A stretch of 64,000 nt of DNA, taken from positions 40,377 to 104,376 of the forward strand of contig JAFGDT010000110.1 of assembly GCA_016931965.1 (NCBI GenBank), written 5' to 3'. Position 1 is the first letter of the stretch. Every line of letters begins with the position of its first letter. The notes under the pieces were generated by a model. It did not search any database, was not told the DNA's origin, and worked only from the letters and a program-made list of their open reading frames with translations. The DNA is from a bacterium. Lineage in GTDB: Bacteria; Zhuqueibacterota; QNDG01; DSAB01. The translations under genes and the position numbers were made by a program. This document shows positions 1-8,146 of the stretch, one piece after another.

Positions 1-555
1 ATCCCCGTCAAACGTCATCATGATGGGCCTGTTTCCGTATGCACATCCCTGGTCCATTCGGCCGCAGCGTGAGGGAGTGGTAATTTCACCCAGATAGGCA
101 TATTCCATCTCGCCGCGAATCGTCATTTTCAGATCGTAGATCCGGTTGAATGCGCGGGCGACAAGGACACAGATGGCGGCGCTGGATGAGAGTCCTTTTT
201 TTATGGGGAGATCGGTTAAATCATTCTCAATCTCAAGGCCGCGGACCCTGTAATGGGTCAGAACCTGGTAGGCCACACCGGCTACATAGCTGAAGAAGCC
301 TCCTTTTTTGGCTTCTTCCAGCAGGGTTTCCCTTTCCATGGGGAGTTCGAAAGGGCCTTTGCGGGTGCCATCTTCGAGCGTTGCACGGAAGATGAGTTTG
401 GACGGATGGGATTTCACCTCGGCATAGATGCCCTGGTTTGTGCCTGTGATCAGGGTGTATCCTTTCTCCAGATCGGCATTGATGCGGCGGTATCCCCCCG
501 CCCAGTCGCTGTGTTCACCAAAGAGACAGATCCGTCCTGGTACAAAGATTTTCAT
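1..555 (-). CDS. GHMP-family sugar kinase (galactokinase-like); the C-terminal part is cut off by the window edge
   Basis: The reverse-strand translation starts at ATG 553-555 (MKIFVPGRICLFGEHSDWAGG...). It carries the galactokinase-type GEHxDW motif and the GHMP phosphate-binding motif (GLSSSAAICV). The frame stays open to position 1. Confidence 0.7.
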   Translation of the reverse strand, partial: MKIFVPGRICLFGEHSDWAGGYRRINADLEKGYTLITGTNQGIYAEVKSHPSKLIFRATLEDGTRKGPFELPMERETLLEEAKKGGFFSYVAGVAYQVLTHYRVRGLEIENDLTDLPIKKGLSSSAAICVLVARAFNRIYDLKMTIRGEMEYAYLGEITTPSRCGRMDQGCAYGNRPIMMTFDGD

Positions 556-744
556 AATTTTTCCTTCTGTTATTAAAATGATCATCAGAATAATCGATGC
601 ATTATATTAGAAAGAATATAATAAATTATCGTTTGAAAGGCGAGGATTTTTATTTATCTGAAGATAATCAAATCAAATACAGTGATTCACCCATTCGATG
701 CCTCATCAAGTCGGGATTGGCGATGTCTATCAGCCACCTTCATC

Positions 745-773
745 TTGACAAGTTCTCGGAGAATTTGTATATT
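745..773 (+). promoter_or_regulatory. sigma70-type promoter: TTGACA, 17-nt spacer, TATATT
   Basis: The consensus -35 box is at 745-750 and the -10 box at 768-773, 25 nt upstream of the tRNA-Leu 5' end. Confidence 0.55.
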
Positions 774-798
774 GATTTCGATTGTAGAACGTCACTCT

Positions 799-882
799 GC
801 CGGGGTGGTGAAATTGGTAGACGCAGGGGACTCAAAATCCCCCGGACTTCGGTCCATGAGAGTTCGATTCTCTCCCCCGGCA
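799..882 (+). tRNA. tRNA-Leu (anticodon CAA), class II with a long variable arm
   Basis: The 7-bp acceptor stem is GCCGGGG/CCCCGGC. The anticodon loop is CTCAAAA with CAA at 833-835. There is a long variable arm, a T-loop TTCGATT and discriminator A882. CCA is not encoded. Confidence 0.9.
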
Positions 883-892
883 CACACATTCG

Positions 893-927
893 GCCACACG
901 TTATTCCTGGTGTGGCACTATTTTTAT
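893..927 (+). terminator. hairpin terminator downstream of tRNA-Leu
   Basis: A GCCACAC/GTGTGGC stem with a 10-nt loop is followed by ACTATTTTTAT. Confidence 0.45.
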
Positions 928-1024
928 CCGCAACCATTTGTTTTCGATCATCAATCATGAAAAAAACGGAAAATGTAATTTTCCCAATCGCTTATCGGAT
1001 CAGTTATTGGTTCAAGGAGATACT

Positions 1025-2542
1025 GTGAATAACCGAGTGGGTTTTGACAATGATCGCTATCTTGAAGAACAGACGTCGGCCATACTTGAACGCGTAGAGC
1101 GGTTCAACAACAAACTCTACCTCGAATTCGGGGGCAAACTGCTTTACGATCTTCATGCTTCCCGGGTTCTTCCCGGGTTTGATCCCAATGTAAAGATGCG
1201 GCTGCTTCAGCAGTTAAAGGACAGGGCCGACATCATTCTCTGTATTTATGCGGGTGATATCGAACGAAAAAAAGTCCGAGCCGATTTCGGTATTACTTAT
1301 GATACGGATGCTCTGAAATTGATCGATGATTTAAGAGATTGGGGCATTGATGTCCTCGCTGTGGTCATCACACGATACGAAGATCAACCGGCGACAAAAG
1401 TGTTTAAAAATCGGCTGGAACGACAAAACATCCGGGTCTATATCCATCGGTACACAAAAGGCTATCCCACTGATGTTGACTTGATTGTCAGTGATGAAGG
1501 GTACGGGGCAAATGAGTATATCCAAACCAAGAATCCGCTCGTTGTGGTCACCGGTCCGGGACCAGGAAGCGGCAAACTGGCCACCTGTCTATCGCAGTTG
1601 TATCATGAAAACAAGAATGGCATCAAAGCGGGCTATGCCAAATTTGAGACCTTTCCCATCTGGAATTTACCCTTAAAGCACCCGGTCAATGTGGCTTATG
1701 AAGCAGCCACCGCCGATATCCGGGATTACAATCAAATAGATCCTTTTCATCTCGAAGCCTACAGTGAAACAACCGTCAACTACAACCGGGATGTTGAGAT
1801 TTTTCCCGTTTTGAAAAAAATCCTTGGCAAGATAACGGGGAACCATTCCATCTATTTATCTCCTACCGACATGGGGGTCAACCGGGCCGGTTTTGGGATC
1901 CTTGACGACGGAGCTGTCCAAGAAGCAGCTAAGCAGGAGGTGATTCGAAGGGCATTCCGGTATAAATGTGAATACATGATGGGTTTTACAGATAAAGAGA
2001 CGGTGAAACGAATCGAACTGCTGATGGGTGAGTTGAATATCGTGCAGGAGGACAGGAAAGTGGTTCAGCCAGCAAGAAACGCCGCGAAGGAAGGTCAAAA
2101 AAAGGGGAAAGGACACGATGGGATCTACTGCGGGGCCGCATTGGAATTGAAAAACGGATCGATTATCACAGGCAAGAATTCTCCGCTCATGCACGCTGCA
2201 TCGAGCCTCATCCTGAATGCTGTAAAAGAGCTGGCCGGTATACCCGATGAAATTCATCTGCTGGCGCCAACGATTACCGAGTCCATCGGTCATTTCAAGA
2301 AAGAGCTATCCAATACAAAGAATGTCAGTATGGATCTGGAAGAAACCCTGATTGCACTCAGCATCAGCGTGACGAACAACCCTTCTGCACAGGTCGCTGT
2401 GAAGAAATTGAAGGAGCTCAATGGTTGTGAAGCGCATACCACACACATTCCCACACCGGGAGACGAAGCCGGCATGCGGAAACTGGGCATCAATCTAACC
2501 AGCGATCCTATTTTTTCGAGTAAGTGTCTTTTTATCAGTTAG
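1025..2542 (+). CDS. DUF1846 (UPF0371) family protein
   Basis: The N-terminal region (GFDNDRYLEEQ...YLEFGGKLLYD) is typical of DUF1846. I propose GTG 1025 as the start, 5 nt after AAGGAG. The six-frame ORF extends to ATG 938. Confidence 0.7.
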   Translation: MNNRVGFDNDRYLEEQTSAILERVERFNNKLYLEFGGKLLYDLHASRVLPGFDPNVKMRLLQQLKDRADIILCIYAGDIERKKVRADFGITYDTDALKLIDDLRDWGIDVLAVVITRYEDQPATKVFKNRLERQNIRVYIHRYTKGYPTDVDLIVSDEGYGANEYIQTKNPLVVVTGPGPGSGKLATCLSQLYHENKNGIKAGYAKFETFPIWNLPLKHPVNVAYEAATADIRDYNQIDPFHLEAYSETTVNYNRDVEIFPVLKKILGKITGNHSIYLSPTDMGVNRAGFGILDDGAVQEAAKQEVIRRAFRYKCEYMMGFTDKETVKRIELLMGELNIVQEDRKVVQPARNAAKEGQKKGKGHDGIYCGAALELKNGSIITGKNSPLMHAASSLILNAVKELAGIPDEIHLLAPTITESIGHFKKELSNTKNVSMDLEETLIALSISVTNNPSAQVAVKKLKELNGCEAHTTHIPTPGDEAGMRKLGINLTSDPIFSSKCLFIS

Positions 2543-2594
2543 GTGGGCATAGACTCAAATTCAAGGGAATCAACATATCTATCGTGGAGAGAAA

Positions 2595-3482
2595 ATGAAT
2601 GGTTTGACTTTCTACATCGTCGATGTATTTGCAGAAGAAAAATACAGCGGCAATCAACTCGCCGTGGTTCGACATGCTGAGCGGCTTTCCGAGACCGAAA
2701 TGCAGCGAATTGCCCGTGAGATGCATTTTTCTGAAACAACCTTTGTTCTCTCCGATCAATCGAGAGAGGGTGGATTCGATGTCCGCATTTTTACACCAGA
2801 AAATGAAGTGGATTTTGCCGGCCATCCCACATTGGGAACGGCTTATGTGATTCAGAAAAAGATCATTCAAATTCCAGTTGAAAGGATTGTATTAAATCTC
2901 AAAGTCGGACCGATACCCGTCTCATTTCAAAAAAAATCGGGAGATCATTCAATACTCTGGATGCAGCAGATTCATCCCACGTTTGGATCGACATTGCCTT
3001 CGGAACAGTTAGCAGAGGTCTTGTGTATCGACACAAACATGATTGATACACGCTTTCCCATTGAGCAAGTCTCCACCGGATTGCCCTTTATCATTGTTCC
3101 TCTCACAGGTCTTTCCGCTCTGAAGCAGATCAAAATCAATAGCAACGCGTACGATCGGTTAACCGAGAATCTCTGGGCAAAGATTATTCTGGTCTTTGCG
3201 CCCGAAGGGCATCATAAAACGGCTGATTTGAGTGTCAGGGTTTTTCCCCTCTGTTTTGGAATCCCCGAGGATCCGGCTACGGGGAGCGGCAACGGGTGCC
3301 TTGCAGGGTATCTGGTTAAACACCGTTATTTTGGTCAACCGGAAATCGATTTGAAAGTCAGTCAGGGACACGAAATCAAACGGCCCTCTCTACTTCATCT
3401 CAAAGCCAGGGAAACCGGTCAGAACATCGATATTCAAGTTGGGGGCCGGGTGATTGAAGTGGCTGAAGGGCAGCTCATTTAA
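2595..3482 (+). CDS. PhzF-family phenazine-biosynthesis-like isomerase/epimerase
   Basis: The 295-aa protein begins FYIVDVFAEEKYSGNQLAVV and contains HFSETTFV and GHPTLGTAYV, which are canonical PhzF/YddE motifs. Confidence 0.85.
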   Translation: MNGLTFYIVDVFAEEKYSGNQLAVVRHAERLSETEMQRIAREMHFSETTFVLSDQSREGGFDVRIFTPENEVDFAGHPTLGTAYVIQKKIIQIPVERIVLNLKVGPIPVSFQKKSGDHSILWMQQIHPTFGSTLPSEQLAEVLCIDTNMIDTRFPIEQVSTGLPFIIVPLTGLSALKQIKINSNAYDRLTENLWAKIILVFAPEGHHKTADLSVRVFPLCFGIPEDPATGSGNGCLAGYLVKHRYFGQPEIDLKVSQGHEIKRPSLLHLKARETGQNIDIQVGGRVIEVAEGQLI

Positions 3483-3552
3483 TCTTTTCCAGAAGATCAC
3501 TTCCCGATGAATGAATCGATTGAGTCGGAAATGAGAGTGTGAAAAAAGGATC

Positions 3553-4656
3553 ATGTCCAAGTATTATCAAGAATTGGAAAGCGAGGCGGAGCATACTTTC
3601 CCGATCGATTCGACCATTCAAAAACTGATTCAATACCAGCAAGATGCTGGATTCGGGTTTCCGCAGTACTGGGACACGACCTATCGGTTTCAGGATTTTT
3701 ATCGGGATTATGAAGATGGTCTGATCCATCGTATTTTGAATAGTCGTGAAGAAAAACTGAAACGCTTAATTCGTCAGGAACAGCTTGAATCCGGTAATCC
3801 CTTGGTTGAGGATCGCCCTTTATTCACCGATGCATTCCAGTTTGCAGCCAGGAAAATTCTCTGGCGGGCGTTTCGGCGAATCGGCTTTCAGGGCACAAAA
3901 TCGAAAGGGGAAGAGGGTGCTGTCCATGACGGCTGCTGGATCTGCATGGAGAATATTCCCGATGAACAGAAGGGATTCCGAATCACCGGTCCAGATGGAT
4001 CTCTCAGTCATGTCATTTTGATGAATCCTTTTCCCATACTCAAAGACCAGGTTACCATCGCATCGCTCCAGCATGAGCCGCAGGAACTGACGGAGAAACA
4101 CATTCGATTTATTCTTGATCTGGTTGAAAGATCGGAAGCGTTTAAATACAGTTTCAACGGTATCGGTGCAGGGGCGAGTATCCCGGCACATTTCCATTTT
4201 TATGGTTTTGCCGGGACACTTCCTGTCGAGGAGATTTCGCTCTCCGTGCCCATCAAAGAGACCGATCACATCTCTGTCCATCGACTGGATCCCGTCTGGC
4301 CCATCTCTGCCATTGTCCTCACCGGTCACAATGAACCGATTGTCGCTTTCTTGCTTGTCGTATCAAAGCATCTCCATTCAAAAAATTTACGTATGAACAT
4401 CCTGTTTACACGGGATGATGCAAGACAAGCGAGAGTCTATGTTTTCCCCAGAAAAAAAGCGGGACCGGAACCGGGCACCGGCTTTCACAGGCTTTTCGGG
4501 AGTATTGAAATGGGCGGTATGCTTGTCTGCGAATCGAGTGTGGAGTATCAGAATGCGCGTGGAGACCATTTTGTTGAGGCGCTCAAGCAGGTTGGAGTGT
4601 CCGGAGCCGGTTCATCGAGCAGTGAACTCGTTGAGGGATTGACTGTCGACCTATAG
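3553..4656 (+). CDS. HIT-like/GalT-like nucleotidyltransferase or phosphorylase family protein (possibly GDP-hexose-phosphorylase-like, DUF4922-like)
   Basis: The 367-aa protein has an HFHFYGF histidine motif after GIGAGASIPA, resembling the HxHxQ/HxHxH motif of GalT, Apa2 and VTC2-type enzymes. The family assignment is tentative. Confidence 0.45.
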   Translation: MSKYYQELESEAEHTFPIDSTIQKLIQYQQDAGFGFPQYWDTTYRFQDFYRDYEDGLIHRILNSREEKLKRLIRQEQLESGNPLVEDRPLFTDAFQFAARKILWRAFRRIGFQGTKSKGEEGAVHDGCWICMENIPDEQKGFRITGPDGSLSHVILMNPFPILKDQVTIASLQHEPQELTEKHIRFILDLVERSEAFKYSFNGIGAGASIPAHFHFYGFAGTLPVEEISLSVPIKETDHISVHRLDPVWPISAIVLTGHNEPIVAFLLVVSKHLHSKNLRMNILFTRDDARQARVYVFPRKKAGPEPGTGFHRLFGSIEMGGMLVCESSVEYQNARGDHFVEALKQVGVSGAGSSSSELVEGLTVDL

Positions 4657-4711
4657 AAACGATTCAATTTCTGGATTTGTAGTCGTTCTTATTTTCTTTT
4701 TCTGGATTTCC

Positions 4712-5725
4712 ATGAAATTATCCGCCCCAAAAAGAGTTATTCTTTTAATATGTCTTTTCCTGTTGCTGATAATTGGAGGTTATTTTGTCAACACGGCTTA
4801 TGTTCACTATTACCACTCCTCTCCACATCATGCATCCTATCGAGCGGATTTGTCCGATTTGTTTGATGATACACTGAGCCATTATTATGTGCACACTGAT
4901 GGGACAGGAGCGCTTGCTCTTGAATCGGGTATGTATGCCAATCCTCCTTTCAATTTTGATGGTGTGCCGGTTGTTGATTACGGGGAAGATGTCGGAAGAC
5001 AGGAAAATCCAGTGACAATTGCACAATACGGTCTGGACAATTGGGAGCTCTATCTGCAGACACAGGACGGGAAATATATCGATGTTCTGTTGATCCAATC
5101 CGACTGGCTGGTCGATCATCAAGAAAATGGCAAATGGGCGTACAATTTTGAAATCCATGAACGATCGCTTCAAAAAGGCTGGATTTCGGCGATGGCCCAG
5201 GGACAGGCCATTTCGCTACTGCTGCGCGCATGGCAATTTACAGAGGATTCAAGCTACTTTCAATCGGCTCAGGAATCATTATCCCTTTTTAAGTTGGATC
5301 TCAAAGAGAATGGTGTCTCTTTTTATGAAAGCGACAGTTCAATATGGTTTGAAGAATACCCTGATCCTTTCAATCCCACCCATGTCTTGAACGGGCATAT
5401 ATGGGCACTGTTTGGCCTCTGGGATTACTATCGTGTCACTCACGATTCGGTGGCAAGGCAATTGTTTGATGCTGGGATTCAAGCTGTTGAAGATCAAATC
5501 GATTGTTATGATACGGGGTACTGGGTACTGTACGAACAAAAACCGTTGCGTTTAGTCAGCGGCTCCTATATGGATTTACAGATTGATCAGATGGTGGTTC
5601 TTTATGCTCTGACTCAACATGAAGTTTTTGATGTTTATGCAAAAAAATGGTATGGATATTTTAACAATAAAAAGAATTTTCCCAAAATTGTGATACAAAA
5701 GATAAAATCTTTTTTAACACATTAA
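4712..5725 (+). CDS. D-glucuronyl C5-epimerase C-terminal-domain family protein with a signal anchor
   Basis: An N-terminal transmembrane helix is followed by WISAMAQGQAISLLLRAW and HVLNGHIWALFGLWDYY, both typical of the C5-epimerase C-terminal (alpha/alpha-toroid) domain. Confidence 0.65.
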   Translation: MKLSAPKRVILLICLFLLLIIGGYFVNTAYVHYYHSSPHHASYRADLSDLFDDTLSHYYVHTDGTGALALESGMYANPPFNFDGVPVVDYGEDVGRQENPVTIAQYGLDNWELYLQTQDGKYIDVLLIQSDWLVDHQENGKWAYNFEIHERSLQKGWISAMAQGQAISLLLRAWQFTEDSSYFQSAQESLSLFKLDLKENGVSFYESDSSIWFEEYPDPFNPTHVLNGHIWALFGLWDYYRVTHDSVARQLFDAGIQAVEDQIDCYDTGYWVLYEQKPLRLVSGSYMDLQIDQMVVLYALTQHEVFDVYAKKWYGYFNNKKNFPKIVIQKIKSFLTH

Positions 5726-5744
5726 ATCATTTCATGATATTCTC

Positions 5745-6440
5745 TCATTCTTGTGAATGGGCCTCGATAAAATCTTCCTCTATTTTTTCTGCCACACGAT
5801 CTGCTGTATAGTCGGCCAGATGCGTAAATCCGGTTATCATTTCTTCCTCAGATAAATCGGATAAGGCAGAGGCGGTGAGCACATTTCCAAATGATTCACC
5901 CAGACCGAATATAGAACCGGTGATGACTGTCTTTTCACGAATTGTCTTTTCCCAGACTTCGATGTGCCTGACGTTGTCGATTAGTCTGACATTCAGATCA
6001 ATGATAAATTCGACACTGGCATCCCATGATTTGGCCTCAATACCATATTTTTTTATCTTCATCATCATGAGAAAATCGGCGCCTTTTGTCTCTTCGAGAG
6101 GATAAAAATAGAGATATTCACTGCTCTGTTCGAGTGTCCGCTTTCGTATTTGTTCGGGGATATTTACCTGTGTCATGGCATTGTCCAGACGTTGTTGAGC
6201 CTGACGTAATTGAATCTCTTTCCCAATAGAGGTTCCAATCCGTATAGCTGTTTCGACCAATCCTTGACTTCCGAGATAAAAGGAATCCGAAAAAATTTGT
6301 GCCCTTGGGGGTGTGGCCATCATGGCCGCGACCGTGGTCTCATTAAACTCGTATTCATGGAGTCGGTTAGAGCTGCATCGGATGATGACAATAGAGACCA
6401 GGATGAGGATAAGCATAATAATGACTATTTGTTTTTTCAT
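5745..6440 (-). CDS. hypothetical lipoprotein
   Basis: I chose MKKQIVIIMLILILVSIVIIRCSS as the start because GGAGG lies 7 nt upstream. This is a signal peptide with a lipobox-like Cys. I found no family match. Confidence 0.55.
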   Translation of the reverse strand: MKKQIVIIMLILILVSIVIIRCSSNRLHEYEFNETTVAAMMATPPRAQIFSDSFYLGSQGLVETAIRIGTSIGKEIQLRQAQQRLDNAMTQVNIPEQIRKRTLEQSSEYLYFYPLEETKGADFLMMMKIKKYGIEAKSWDASVEFIIDLNVRLIDNVRHIEVWEKTIREKTVITGSIFGLGESFGNVLTASALSDLSEEEMITGFTHLADYTADRVAEKIEEDFIEAHSQE

Positions 6441-6477
6441 ATGTTCCTCCATTCGTTTTTTGGTTTATATTTTAGAC

Positions 6478-6592
6478 ATCCTCCTAAATCTCCCTTTGAA
6501 GGGAGATCCTCGTCCATTTTTTTTAGGACAAGGTAGAGGGATGTCTCTCCCCTTGAGTGGAGAACCTTGGCGATAGCCAAGGAAGAGGGGTG
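6478..6592. repeat. BIME-like mosaic hairpin element, copy a (modules A-B-C-D)
   Basis: It contains the hairpins TCTCCCTTTGAAGGGAGA, GTCC..GGAC, TCTCCCCTTGAGTGGAGA and CCTTGGCGATAGCCAAGG, then AAGAGGGGTGT. Related copies are at 6996-7081, 10145-10275 and 13201-13385. Confidence 0.8.
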
Positions 6593-6958
6593 TTACTCAA
6601 CCAATTGAATGATCCTTTCAACAACACCTTCAATATTATTTATGACATCCAGATTTGAGACCCGAAGAACTTTGAGATTCAATCCCTTTAGGTATGCATC
6701 CCGAATTTCATCGTATTCCAAACCGTCATCTTCGTAATGCTGGCCGCCATCGACTTCGATGACGAGGTTGGCTTCAGGCGCATAGAAATCAACGATGTAA
6801 TTGTCCATTGGGCGTTGGCGGAGGAATTTAACGCCAGCCATTTGCCTCATTCGCAGGTGCTGCCACAATTTAACTTCTGCATCGGTCATTGAACTGCGTA
6901 GTTTTCTGGCGCGGTCTTTCAATTTTGGATTGTATTTTAGAATTGGATTTTTTAGCAT
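6593..6958 (-). CDS. DUF559 (Vsr-like) endonuclease-domain protein
   Basis: The protein reads MLKNPILKYNPKLKDRARKLRSSMTDAEVKLWQHLR...VIEVDGGQHY. The six-frame ORF extends N-terminally into the repeat element, so I trimmed it to ATG 6958. Confidence 0.75.
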   Translation of the reverse strand: MLKNPILKYNPKLKDRARKLRSSMTDAEVKLWQHLRMRQMAGVKFLRQRPMDNYIVDFYAPEANLVIEVDGGQHYEDDGLEYDEIRDAYLKGLNLKVLRVSNLDVINNIEGVVERIIQLVE

Positions 6959-6995
6959 GCGTTTGAAGCTCTGTTCTTTTTGATTTCTTTTTGGA

Positions 6996-7081
6996 CACCC
7001 ACCTAAATCCTCCCTCAAGGGAGGACTTAACTTATCTCCCCTTGAGGGGAGACCCTTGGCGATAGCCAAGGAAGAGGGGTG
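6996..7081. repeat. BIME-like mosaic hairpin element, copy b (modules X-C-D)
   Basis: It contains TCCTCCCTCAAGGGAGGA, TCTCCCCTTGAGGGGAGA and CCTTGGCGATAGCCAAGG, then AAGAGGGGTGT, and abuts RM stub 4. Confidence 0.8.
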
Positions 7082-7185
7082 TCACACACTCCCCTCCACA
7101 ATCTTAATCTCCTCCTCCGTCAAGCCTTACAGCTCGTACACAAGTCGGTCAATCTGCGTGTCTGTAGCATCGATCTGGCGCTGGA
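7082..7185 (-). pseudogene. orphan 3'-terminal stub (copy 4) of a Type IIG RM gene
   Basis: A 104-bp stretch is homologous to 10276-10380, the last ~35 codons of the 974-aa RM gene (QRQIDATDTQIDRLVYEL...). The Tyr codon has become TAA at 7127-7129. No upstream gene body is present. Confidence 0.8.
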
Positions 7186-7205
7186 ACTGCTCGAGATTGC
7201 CTGCT

Positions 7206-7733
7206 CTATTTCCACTCATCGGGTCTTCTCAATATAAAACCATCTAACTTCTTCAATCTATCTGGGAAAACGGAATTTGCGATTCTCTTCTCAGGGAATA
7301 ATTTTTTCACCTTCTTTATCGGTGCAGAAAGATCACTGTCTGCTGAAATTAATATCGCTCTATCGAACCGATCCTTAAAAGCATCGGTTAACATTTCAAC
7401 GGCAATATTCACATCCGTCATTTTCTCGTTTGGTTTTGGTATGATGTTGCCACATTTGTAACATTCGATATCATTTGGAAGATAGTGGCCATAATAAATC
7501 TTGAATTTTTTCAAGGTTTCCAGTGCTTCAATAAACGTCGTCTGTCTTTTTACTTTATCCGGTGGAAAAGATACTCGTGAAGTAAAATATTTTGTCATAA
7601 TTAACTTTTGATCTTCTTTTAGAAGAGCCTTCGCCAGTTTCTGTAAGTTCAACCAATAATAACGCTTCCACTTTTTCTCCTTCAATCCAAAATACAGATT
7701 AAAACCATCGATGTATACGATCACTTTTTCCAT
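7206..7733 (-). CDS. NYN-domain (LabA-like) predicted RNase with a Cys-x2-Cys insert
   Basis: MEKVIVYIDGFNLYFG and DVNIAVEMLTDA...ILISADSDLSAP are the NYN (PF01936) hallmarks. I trimmed the start to ATG 7733; the ORF caller used TTG 7751. Confidence 0.8.
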   Translation of the reverse strand: MEKVIVYIDGFNLYFGLKEKKWKRYYWLNLQKLAKALLKEDQKLIMTKYFTSRVSFPPDKVKRQTTFIEALETLKKFKIYYGHYLPNDIECYKCGNIIPKPNEKMTDVNIAVEMLTDAFKDRFDRAILISADSDLSAPIKKVKKLFPEKRIANSVFPDRLKKLDGFILRRPDEWK

Positions 7734-7744
7734 GATAATTTTTC

Positions 7745-7773
7745 TTGACAAACGTAAACAAAGGTGTTATATT
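7745..7773 (+). promoter_or_regulatory. consensus sigma70 promoter TTGACA-17-TATATT, divergent from the NYN gene
   Basis: The -35 and -10 hexamers are exact with a 17-nt spacer, and no plus-strand ORF follows. Confidence 0.5.
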
Positions 7774-7780
7774 TTATCCA

Positions 7781-7848
7781 TAAGAACACCGCTGGAGATA
7801 GCATCTCCGGTTTGACGCTCCGACTCAGTCGGGGCGTTTCTTATTTCT
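7781..7848 (+). ncRNA. candidate small RNA N (~68 nt)
   Basis: The transcript implied by the 7745 promoter contains a GGAGAT-AGC-ATCTCC hairpin and then a CGCTCCGAC-TCA-GTCGGGGCG hairpin followed by TTTCTTATTTCT, a Rho-independent terminator. There is no ATG in it. Confidence 0.4.
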
Positions 7849-7870
7849 AAGGATCTCATTGCAACGATTT

Positions 7871-7957
7871 CTCCACCACCTTAATCTCCTCCTCCGTTAA
7901 ACCGTAAAGCTCGTACACCAGCCGGTCAATCTGTGCGTCTATGGAATTAATCTGGCG
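7871..7957 (-). pseudogene. orphan 3'-terminal stub (copy 3) of a Type IIG RM gene
   Basis: It is homologous to the RM 3' end and reads ...SIDAQIDRLVYELYGLTEEEIKVVEKSLQ* in frame, but there is no start codon or gene body upstream. Confidence 0.75.
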
Positions 7958-8014
7958 ATTATAGATAACCCATATTATCCTAAAATTAATTTTGATATAG
8001 TTGAAACTTTTTAC

Positions 8015-8042
8015 TTGACATTGTGTAAAATATTTGTAATTT
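8015..8042 (+). promoter_or_regulatory. sigma70-like promoter TTGACA-16-TAATTT
   Basis: The -35 box is exact and the -10 box is weaker. It is convergent with the 3' end of the DUF3800 gene 8140-8865. Confidence 0.35.
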
Positions 8043-8048
8043 TATAGT

Positions 8049-8146
8049 GCGCCACATAGAGCCGAAAACCCTGATGATGTCAGGGAAACCGTTTAACGGT
8101 AGTCCAGAATTTCGAGACGTAGGCTTGTCGGGCGCCTTTTTATTTT
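8049..8146 (+). ncRNA. candidate small RNA B (~100 nt)
   Basis: It contains the hairpin CCCTGA-TGATG-TCAGGG (8069-8085) and an ACCG...CGGT hairpin, and ends in GGCGCC plus TTTTTATTTT, which abuts the stop codon of the convergent DUF3800 gene. These could instead be terminator structures of that gene. Confidence 0.25.

Follow-up and report, generated by a model that had tools for sequence, protein, structure and literature searches.

We analysed a 64,000-nucleotide stretch of a bacterial genome (Zhuqueibacterota; contig JAFGDT010000110.1, positions 40,377 to 104,376 of the forward strand), hereafter called the window. The subject here is a pair of divergent genes within it, one encoding a NYN-domain nuclease and the other, at 7745-7848, a predicted small RNA (sRNA). 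The pair is composed of the following features.

7206-7733, minus strand: NYN (LabA-like, PIN-like) ribonuclease of the PADLOC HEC-09 family (Pfam NYN, 2.3e-10; PADLOC HEC-09, 3.8e-71)
7745-7773, plus strand: sRNA promoter, with the -35 box TTGACA (7745-7750), a 17-nt spacer and the extended -10 element TGtTATATT (7765-7773)
7780-7848, plus strand: predicted sRNA transcript of about 67-69 nt, its start placed from the position of the -10 box
7785-7790, plus strand: conserved single-stranded 5' motif AACACC, from the alignment (family consensus AACAGC; AACCCC in divergent members)
7791-7811, plus strand: hairpin 1, a 9-bp stem with two G·U pairs and an AGC triloop; invariant GAU-AGY-AUC tip
7812-7816, plus strand: linker UUGAC ending in the conserved GAC, from the alignment (family YYYGAC); its last bases open the terminator stem
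7814-7848, plus strand: intrinsic terminator, a G+C-rich 11-bp hairpin (7814-7838) with a TCA loop and the U-rich tail UUUCUUAUUUCU (7837-7848)

The -10 hexamer TATATT of the sRNA promoter occupies 7768-7773, and the TG that extends it lies within the spacer at 7765-7766. Our reading agrees with that of the initial annotation, made from the sequence alone, which had described an exact TTGACA-17-TATATT matching the tRNA-Leu promoter: hexamers and spacing are identical to those at 745-773, upstream of the sole tRNA gene of the window (tRNA-Leu, 799-883). Among 50 promoter-like matches in the 16 kb scanned, four scored at least 11 of 12. The predicted 69-nt RNA (7780-7848) folds with -30.6 kcal/mol (z = -5.4 versus shuffles) and contains no open reading frame, in line with the earlier remark that no coding potential follows the promoter. 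The two hairpins and the U tail noted at that time are also present, except that hairpin 1 is longer than was given, with 9 bp at 7791-7811. The terminator is the highest-ranked terminator-like site listed for positions 1-16000 (11 pairs, 7 of them G-C), and it should work one way only, since no U tract follows the hairpin on the opposite strand. Because the number of such sites in the region is not above that in shuffles (15 found, 15.6 expected), the terminator by itself would not be significant, and the unit alone would be suggestive at most.

A covariance model built from the alignment of homologues matched positions 7779-7845 with 68.7 bits (E = 6.5e-16), and no second credible match was found in the 64-kb window. 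Rfam 15 returned no family for this sRNA, or for the two neighbouring sRNAs described below, either in window positions 6400-10400 at E ≤ 10 or in 12 homologous loci at E ≤ 1, and a scan of the whole window at gathering thresholds returned tRNA-Leu only. A description of this NYN-linked RNA was not found in the literature searched, the coverage of which is incomplete, so that an earlier description is possible. When the sRNA consensus was used as a blastn query, complete E. coli genomes gave no match and plasmids gave one partial match (query 28-69, E = 0.01).

The nuclease matches the HEC-09 profile PDLC04163 with residues 7-165 on profile positions 1-159 of 203. The sRNA promoter had been thought to overlap the 5' end of this gene. 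The alignment of homologues instead sets the start codon at ATG 7733, not at TTG 7751, and the -35 box is located 12 nt upstream of it, outside the coding sequence and in the 5' leader or promoter region; across loci, this distance is 11-19 nt. The sRNA is directed away from the nuclease gene and begins about 47 nt upstream of its ATG. The NYN gene has no strong promoter comparable to that of the sRNA: the sole -10-like hexamer on its strand (TAAAAT in the window, TATAAT in several loci) lies back-to-back over the sRNA -10 box. The acidic residues D9, D107, D132 and D134 are invariant in the alignments. With 175 a.a. in a family of about 203 a.a., the window protein is short because of an 84-nt in-frame deletion, by which 28 residues were lost. 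The deleted segment, visible in an intact relative (L001), is bounded by AGAAGAnAAT microhomology. It comprises nearly invariant residues and a core strand-helix-strand segment in the AlphaFold2 model of a full-length homologue (pLDDT 88), and the sole significant match of the model in the Protein Data Bank (PDB) is the LabA-like protein 2qip. Because nearly invariant residues of the fold core are lost, the NYN protein of the window has probably lost its activity; the sRNA gene beside it is intact.

The linkage of the two genes was examined from both sides. A protein-first scan, with the NYN protein against one genome per species, gave 12 loci of 45-77% identity, and a divergent sRNA unit was present at all 11 of those with upstream DNA available. 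The cultured Thermus oshimai JL-2 also carries the divergent unit, on the megaplasmid pTHEOS01 (covariance model, 49.6 bits). Its NYN gene occupies 205933-206550 of the plasmid, with the sRNA a short way upstream at about 205.8 kb (L133, 2384-2444, minus strand). Among NYN homologues of at least 45% identity with inspectable upstream DNA, the unit was found in 12 of 12, in answer to the earlier question whether homologous NYN cassettes elsewhere contain the same module; a nuclease of this clade without the sRNA was not seen (0/12 protein-first loci). The unit-bearing loci are labelled as Desulfobacteraceae, Calditrichaceae, Bacteroidales/Bacteroidetes, Cytophagia, Phycisphaerae, 'delta proteobacterium' and Deinococcota.

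The converse, RNA-first pattern scan yielded at least 120 metagenome contigs with one copy each. Among the matches listed, to which all counts of linked and NYN-less loci refer, seven contigs had no room for a gene; of the 113 loci with room, 86 (76%) had a NYN gene on the other strand, its start codon 41-75 nt from the motif, and the remaining 27 had none. In all 86 linked loci, as in the window, the two genes diverge. At one Phycisphaerae locus (L010, 2807-2925, minus strand), a second copy of hairpin 1 and a hairpin directly follow the sRNA (32.4 bits); this partial second copy is the sole hint of a tandem-repeat organisation.

These counts bear on whether the unit could be a generic terminator, REP-type or bidirectional, or else a promoter and a hairpin combined by chance. 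Terminator-like sites that are no commoner than in shuffles and 27 copies away from NYN genes would suit such an explanation. However, whereas REP and other generic repeats occur in many copies at unrelated loci, the unit is present as one copy in 64 kb and one per locus elsewhere; its geometry relative to NYN is fixed in 86 loci, and strong covariation and a conserved hairpin that is not part of the terminator are added to this. We regard the explanation as effectively refuted.

The surroundings of the pair vary. In 23 of 26 long loci, the next gene past the sRNA has the same orientation as NYN. The flanking genes include restriction-modification (RM) and defence genes, such as those for Eco57I-type methyltransferases, an SNF2-PLD protein, IrrE, a deaminase and ORF6N, as well as ordinary metabolic and housekeeping genes. 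With such mixed flanks, the idea that the pair is always embedded in a defence system found no support, and the ~0.8-kb pair acts as a mobile cassette in its own right, not strictly tied to one host system. A phage origin was likewise rejected: a protein scan of IMG/VR was empty, a pattern scan of the same collection gave one viral contig with an orphan copy, and GenBank phages contained two distant NYN genes and no more. The pair is essentially absent from viral collections and complete E. coli genomes. In the viral contig (UViG_3300033149_002731; L150, 1880-1939, minus strand), the HEC-09-type sRNA (covariance model, 50 bits) precedes an HNH gene, its U tail is poor, and no NYN gene is present within the 7.7 kb examined; this single case could conceivably be a phage-borne counter-defence decoy.

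We then asked on which strand, and at which level, the unit is conserved. Pair counts were made on a 65-sequence alignment, with partners slid by 1-3 columns and 500 shuffles as controls. Overall, 98.7% of the cells were paired, versus 32-52% with slid partners; both-sided changes were found in 10 of the 16 pairs, and none of the 500 shuffles reached the observed values. Hairpin 1 (99.5% of cells paired, double compensatory changes in five of nine pairs) and the terminator stem (97.6% of cells paired) both covary, and at each of the three stem positions left free by the search pattern, four to six pair types occur. G·U and U·G pairs, which are found on the sRNA strand only, are numerous, with 33 at one single pair. 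Since a G·U pair would become an A·C mismatch in the complementary strand, it is as the sRNA strand that the structure is under selection.

From 5' to 3', the family unit consists of an AAC(A/C)(G/C)C tail, a 9-bp stem with the GAU-AGY-AUC tip, the YYYGAC linker, a G+C-rich terminator hairpin and GUUUCUUUUU. The AACAGC-type 5' tail is also found at the protein-first loci, i.e., loci that were not chosen by the search pattern. Most homologous loci have a TTGAC(A/T)-16/18-TAnnnT promoter in the same place, and Bacteroidetes-type loci have a TAnnTTTG promoter at a fitting distance instead; the predicted sRNA promoter type follows the host lineage. As judged from sequence comparison, it follows from this conservation that the unit is more than chance.

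Could the conserved structure be that of DNA? An attC-like recombination site, an operator palindrome or a cassette boundary would be in keeping with the location of the unit at cassette edges, in an array with 87-nt methyltransferase 3'-end stubs in between, and with its AAC...GUU flanks and its persistence when NYN is lost. We consider a DNA-level element highly improbable, however, in view of the A·C mismatches just mentioned and of the lineage-specific promoter before, and the U tract after, nearly all copies. At other loci, the stubs do not belong to the NYN unit, and the methyltransferase stub was accordingly rejected as a component: its C-terminal peptide occurs downstream of the sRNA in just 5 of 117 loci. 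An integron attC site consists of RYYYAAC...GTTRRRY core sites around one imperfect hairpin, whereas the unit has two separate hairpins and a 3' flank of GUUUCUU in place of the GTTRRRY core.

Taken together, the linkage, the covariation and the lineage-type promoter support the proposal of the initial annotation that an independently transcribed RNA of ~68 nt is a functional part of the NYN cassette, and we are highly confident that the unit is a real sRNA gene with a functional link to NYN.

The 27 NYN-less loci all hold the whole unit. The mean terminator stability and promoter score of these orphan sRNAs are -15.8 kcal/mol and 9.3, as compared with -15.6 kcal/mol and 8.9 for linked sRNAs; because these parts, which are outside the search pattern, are as good as in the linked copies, the orphans are not chance matches. 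Thus, the module does in part occur at unrelated loci, an outcome that had been foreseen as a sign of a REP-type terminator, but as single complete sRNA genes and not as a dispersed REP-type repeat. The first NYN codons remain at three orphan loci (L076, L087 and L129), and other genes in the NYN position at orphan loci encode HsdS, HsdR, AbiEi, a Fic-like protein and ORF6N. In addition, at least 7 of the 86 linked loci contain only a fragment of NYN although the contig goes on, with the sRNA intact. The sRNA outlives the nuclease and the reverse was not seen, as one would expect of an RNA that gives protection from the protein.

The asymmetry also helps in weighing a positive role, in which NYN would need the sRNA as a cofactor, scaffold or sensor for its activity or specificity, or, in a variant, the sRNA would be a decoy or substrate, the cleavage or modification of which by a phage factor triggers the system. 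The same evidence for linkage, covariation and action in trans would be expected in that case. Moreover, the conservation of the loop and tails is stricter than mere occlusion of an active site might require, and Weinberg et al. (2017) saw in comparable gene-linked RNAs (DUF3800-I, drum and skipping-rope) signs of a 'sophisticated biochemical function', which they were unable to assign (PMC5737381). On the other hand, 27 NYN-less loci that keep the sRNA with its promoter and terminator would be unexpected, unless NYN is present elsewhere in the genome, and a conserved 5' tail is unable to serve as a variable guide. We judge a cofactor-like role to be unlikely.

Beyond this clade, NYN genes of 29-38% identity have a structured RNA with a terminator on the same strand, directly upstream.

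L134 2385-2492, L152 323-391, L153 ~300-400, L154 234-298, L151 1413-1478, L135 291-400 and L136 1092-1240: tandem RNAs beside distant NYN genes

They come from plasmids of Leptospira, Methylobacterium, Streptomyces, E. coli and Klebsiella and from one faecal phage clone. The covariance model matched two of these RNAs. In the Streptomyces plasmid, AUACCCCGCC-hairpin-UUCGAC-terminator-GUUUUUG is located ~100 nt before NYN (24.5 bits, E = 5e-5). In the phage clone, UUACCCCCC-hairpin-GCUGAC-terminator-U7 comes after a TAnnTTTG promoter, and the ATG is ~20 nt further on (22.6 bits, E = 2e-4). Both are linked to NYN homologues of 34-38% identity and share a C-rich 5' tail, a hairpin, a linker that retains the terminal GAC motif and a terminator. 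Tandem cases judged by eye are weaker evidence than these two matches. In the Leptospira plasmids, TTGACA-16-TATAAA precedes a two-hairpin RNA with a U tail abutting the ATG (fold z = -4.3), and a second Leptospira species has a compensatory change in the terminator stem; Methylobacterium nodulans pMNOD01, judged by eye, is laid out alike, with two hairpins and then a U tail. The RNAs of both genera are without the GAC linker. Small enterobacterial plasmids (3.4-4.2 kb) contain a longer structured leader upstream of NYN, in which the first hairpin keeps its flanks CACUACC and UUCU and differs in its stem between E. coli and Klebsiella. The pairing of NYN with an sRNA may reach well beyond the HEC-09 clade.

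An RNA of this general build accompanies NYN in both arrangements, tandem and divergent, and this can be reconciled only with action in trans. This bears on the alternative of a cis regulator, in which the sRNA promoter would compete back-to-back with that of NYN and the sRNA would be antisense to read-through transcripts entering NYN, thereby silencing or uncoupling the gene. The short distance from the -35 box to the NYN start and the overlap of the NYN-strand -10-like hexamer with the sRNA -10 box are in its favour. So are the one-directional terminator and the next gene on the NYN strand in 23 of 26 loci, by reason of which read-through transcripts would hold the full complement of the sRNA. 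Nevertheless, cis mechanisms do not require the conservation of primary sequence across phyla, and they fail to account for orphan copies with all of the features or for the related same-strand RNAs in other NYN clades. The complementarity to the NYN translation start and coding region is also at chance level. We find a cis role doubtful on these grounds. A trans-antisense model was rejected by the same calculation, as duplexes between sRNA and NYN mRNA were no better than those with shuffled sRNA (mean z = -0.17, 31 loci), and what had looked like a clustering of the best duplexes at the SADSD codons turned out, on inspection, to consist of inconsistent pairings.

The initial annotation had listed regulatory or antitoxin RNAs and transcriptional insulators as possible functions. 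An insulator is disfavoured, together with a purely cis-acting regulator, because the RNA sequence is conserved, the orphans keep their promoter and terminator and the orientation flips between clades. Judging from the comparisons above, the RNA most likely functions as an antitoxin or regulator of the nuclease.

These results suggest that the supposedly single-gene HEC-09 system is an RNA-protein pair, probably toxin-antitoxin-like. More specifically, 7745-7848 would be the gene for a trans-acting structured sRNA that forms, with the divergent HEC-09 NYN, an RNA-protein cassette with type III-like antitoxin logic, a reading for and against which we see the balance as about even. It entails several steps that we infer, namely that the sRNA is transcribed, that RNA and protein bind each other, that NYN is toxic and that the RNA inhibits it rather than activating it. 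The strong consensus promoter would make the sRNA, and its own terminator would end it. The nuclease would be scarce and the RNA in large excess, as expected from the lack of a recognisable strong NYN promoter and from a NYN leader that crosses the sRNA -35 box. The nuclease would directly recognise the RNA, with the GAUAGYAUC hairpin tip, the AACAGC 5' tail and the GAC linker as candidate contacts, and the binding would hold a potentially toxic RNase inactive, as a type III RNA antitoxin does. A failing supply of the RNA, for example upon phage-induced shut-off or loss of the cassette, would then free the nuclease, an abortive-infection logic.

The resemblance to type III toxin-antitoxin (TA) systems (ToxIN, CptIN and TenpIN) consists in an endoribonuclease combined with a small RNA that has a strong promoter and an intrinsic terminator, where the excess of RNA is a predicted feature here, and in a compact mobile module found in defence contexts and on plasmids. 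In the distant NYN clades, the RNA, the terminator and the nuclease follow one another in this order on one strand, as in toxI-toxN. However, the module behaves as type III-like and yet fails three defining features: the fold is NYN/PIN-like and not that of ToxN/AbiQ (Pfam; the 2qip match), the RNA is a single two-hairpin unit and not a tandem array of short direct repeats, and the RNA gene in this clade is divergent and not upstream on the toxin strand. We propose, tentatively and with somewhat less confidence than the reading above, that HEC-09 NYN and its ~67-nt sRNA represent a new RNA-antitoxin (type III-like) family of toxin-antitoxin or abortive-infection modules, in which for the first time the toxin would be NYN/PIN-like and the RNA non-repetitive, and that other 'single-gene' candidates are of the same kind. 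Type I TA systems and cis-antisense control differ in that no better-than-random pairing of the sRNA with the NYN mRNA was found in the 31 loci, and type I also in the partner, which is a soluble nuclease of ~203 a.a. here and not a small hydrophobic peptide.

A precedent is provided by the abiF motif, a structured gene-linked RNA from comparative genomics that was later shown to neutralise AbiF by direct binding, and the RNA of the AbiF/RCd22 system of Clostridioides difficile acts in cis and in trans (PMC12373285). The likeness is that of a structured RNA found beside one protein family, and binding and neutralisation, which are features of AbiF, may by analogy apply to the NYN pair. AbiF differs in being an Abi_2 HEPN-like protein with another RNA, which is a same-strand 5' leader. 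The DUF3800-I to -XI, drum and skipping-rope motifs are conserved structured sRNAs with Rho-independent terminators and without an assigned function, and eleven different unexplained RNA motifs accompany DUF3800 genes (PMC5737381). They resemble the NYN-linked RNA by behaviour, not by homology: a terminator-bearing structured RNA is located beside one protein family in variable orientation, except that the partner here is NYN and not DUF3800. The DUF3800-I and DUF3800-IX models of Rfam 15 did not match this sRNA or its two neighbours at E ≤ 1-10.

HEC-09 (Hma-embedded candidate 09; Payne et al. 2024) was put forward as a single NYN protein candidate (bioRxiv 10.1101/2024.01.29.577857). The protein family is the same as here and, in part of the loci, is beside restriction-modification or helicase genes; the difference is that HEC-09 was described and tested as a lone protein, whereas it is paired here with an sRNA gene. 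The text of that paper does not mention a non-coding RNA (bioRxiv 10.1101/2024.01.29.577857).

Several points weigh against the antitoxin reading. In the only test reported, HEC-09 gave no phage protection in E. coli, being negative against the BASEL set and classic coliphages, and no toxicity was reported for the tested constructs, which carried ~150 bp of upstream DNA (bioRxiv 10.1101/2024.01.29.577857); the sRNA gene probably lay within this upstream DNA. The RNA is a single unit, unlike the repeat array processed by classical type III toxins. Antisense control of read-through transcripts is possible, given that 23 of 26 long loci have a next gene oriented like NYN, and orphan sRNAs could mean that the RNA has a NYN-independent function. 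As for the data themselves, the RNA-first search pattern fixes part of the conserved sequence, and the protein-first sample of 12 loci is small.

The NYN pair of the window is embedded in an island of similar cassettes, with the following further features.

8015-8146, plus strand: DUF3800 module 1, a promoter (TTGACA at 8015) and a multi-stem sRNA of ~100 nt, convergent with the DUF3800 gene 8865->8140 (minus strand; PADLOC PDC-M04A)
9060-9188, plus strand: DUF3800 module 2, a promoter and an sRNA of ~95 nt, convergent with the DUF3800 gene 9919->9164 (minus strand)
7094-7180, 7871-7957, 8895-8981, 10001-10087 and 10288-10374: 87-nt stubs, five copies, 63-100% identical

The DUF3800 domain has been modelled as RNase H-like. 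In module 1, the closing stem of the sRNA doubles as the terminator. The unit is kept in seven loci (L137 and L139-L144, with homologues of five proteins at 53-76% identity), on the opposite strand just beyond the DUF3800 stop codon, and compensatory changes were found in 15 of the 31 predicted pairs. Because no Rfam family matches, it looks like a further type of DUF3800-associated RNA. The sRNA core of module 2 is GCGACCAAG-ACAGCCGYRAGUGUGCGACUGG-hairpin-CUUGGCCGC, and the unit is kept in L145-L149, likewise positioned next to DUF3800 homologues. The GCGACCAAG...CUUGGCCGC stem is itself the terminator in other loci, while the window copy has an extra terminator hairpin, absent from the homologues; some homologues of this DUF3800 cassette sit between DUF1156 and DUF499 genes. 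NYN-type and DUF3800 cassettes co-occur elsewhere too: at L099, an orphan sRNA at 2148 has a DUF3800 open reading frame 290-1024 nt downstream on the opposite strand.

The statement of the initial annotation that every cassette is accompanied by a plus-strand unit holds for the three cassettes that it named, the units at 8015-8146 and 9060-9188 being conserved. A fourth gene, encoding DUF559 (a Vsr-like endonuclease; 6593-7069, minus strand), closes the cassette array beyond stub 1; no sRNA-like unit was noticed beside it when the region was read, a search aimed at one not having been made.

The 87-nt segment encodes the C-terminus (…IDRLVYELYGLTEEEI…) of a type IIG restriction-methylase gene (13200->10276), and four of its five copies are orphan stubs between cassettes. 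This suggests the serial acquisition of cassettes by recombination at methylase 3' ends, and the stubs belong to the history of the island and not to the NYN module. Five NYN loci elsewhere (L005, L053, L066, L070 and L125) are located directly behind such a methylase tail. Finally, a 69-nt repeat family with internal hairpins flanks island units (6525-6593, 7014-7082, 10208-10276 and 13258-13326). Its best score with the Rfam whalefall-1 model was 26.5 bits, below the gathering score of 37, and it is possibly a REP or MITE-like element.

HEC-09 is listed by protein-based pipelines as a one-gene candidate, and the unit to be cloned, tested and annotated changes if an RNA always travels along. 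The NYN-linked sRNA adds an RNA family that is apparently absent from Rfam and, beside the unexplained DUF3800 RNAs, a second independent case of a nuclease-like protein with a dedicated sRNA; in this island, three such pairs stand side by side. The pair is open to direct testing because the cultured T. oshimai JL-2 carries it on pTHEOS01. If the reading is true, a class of 'single-gene' defence candidates (HEC-09 and PDC-M04/DUF3800) would really be nuclease and sRNA pairs. Their RNA halves would have escaped screens centred on proteins, a possible explanation for negative assays in heterologous hosts.

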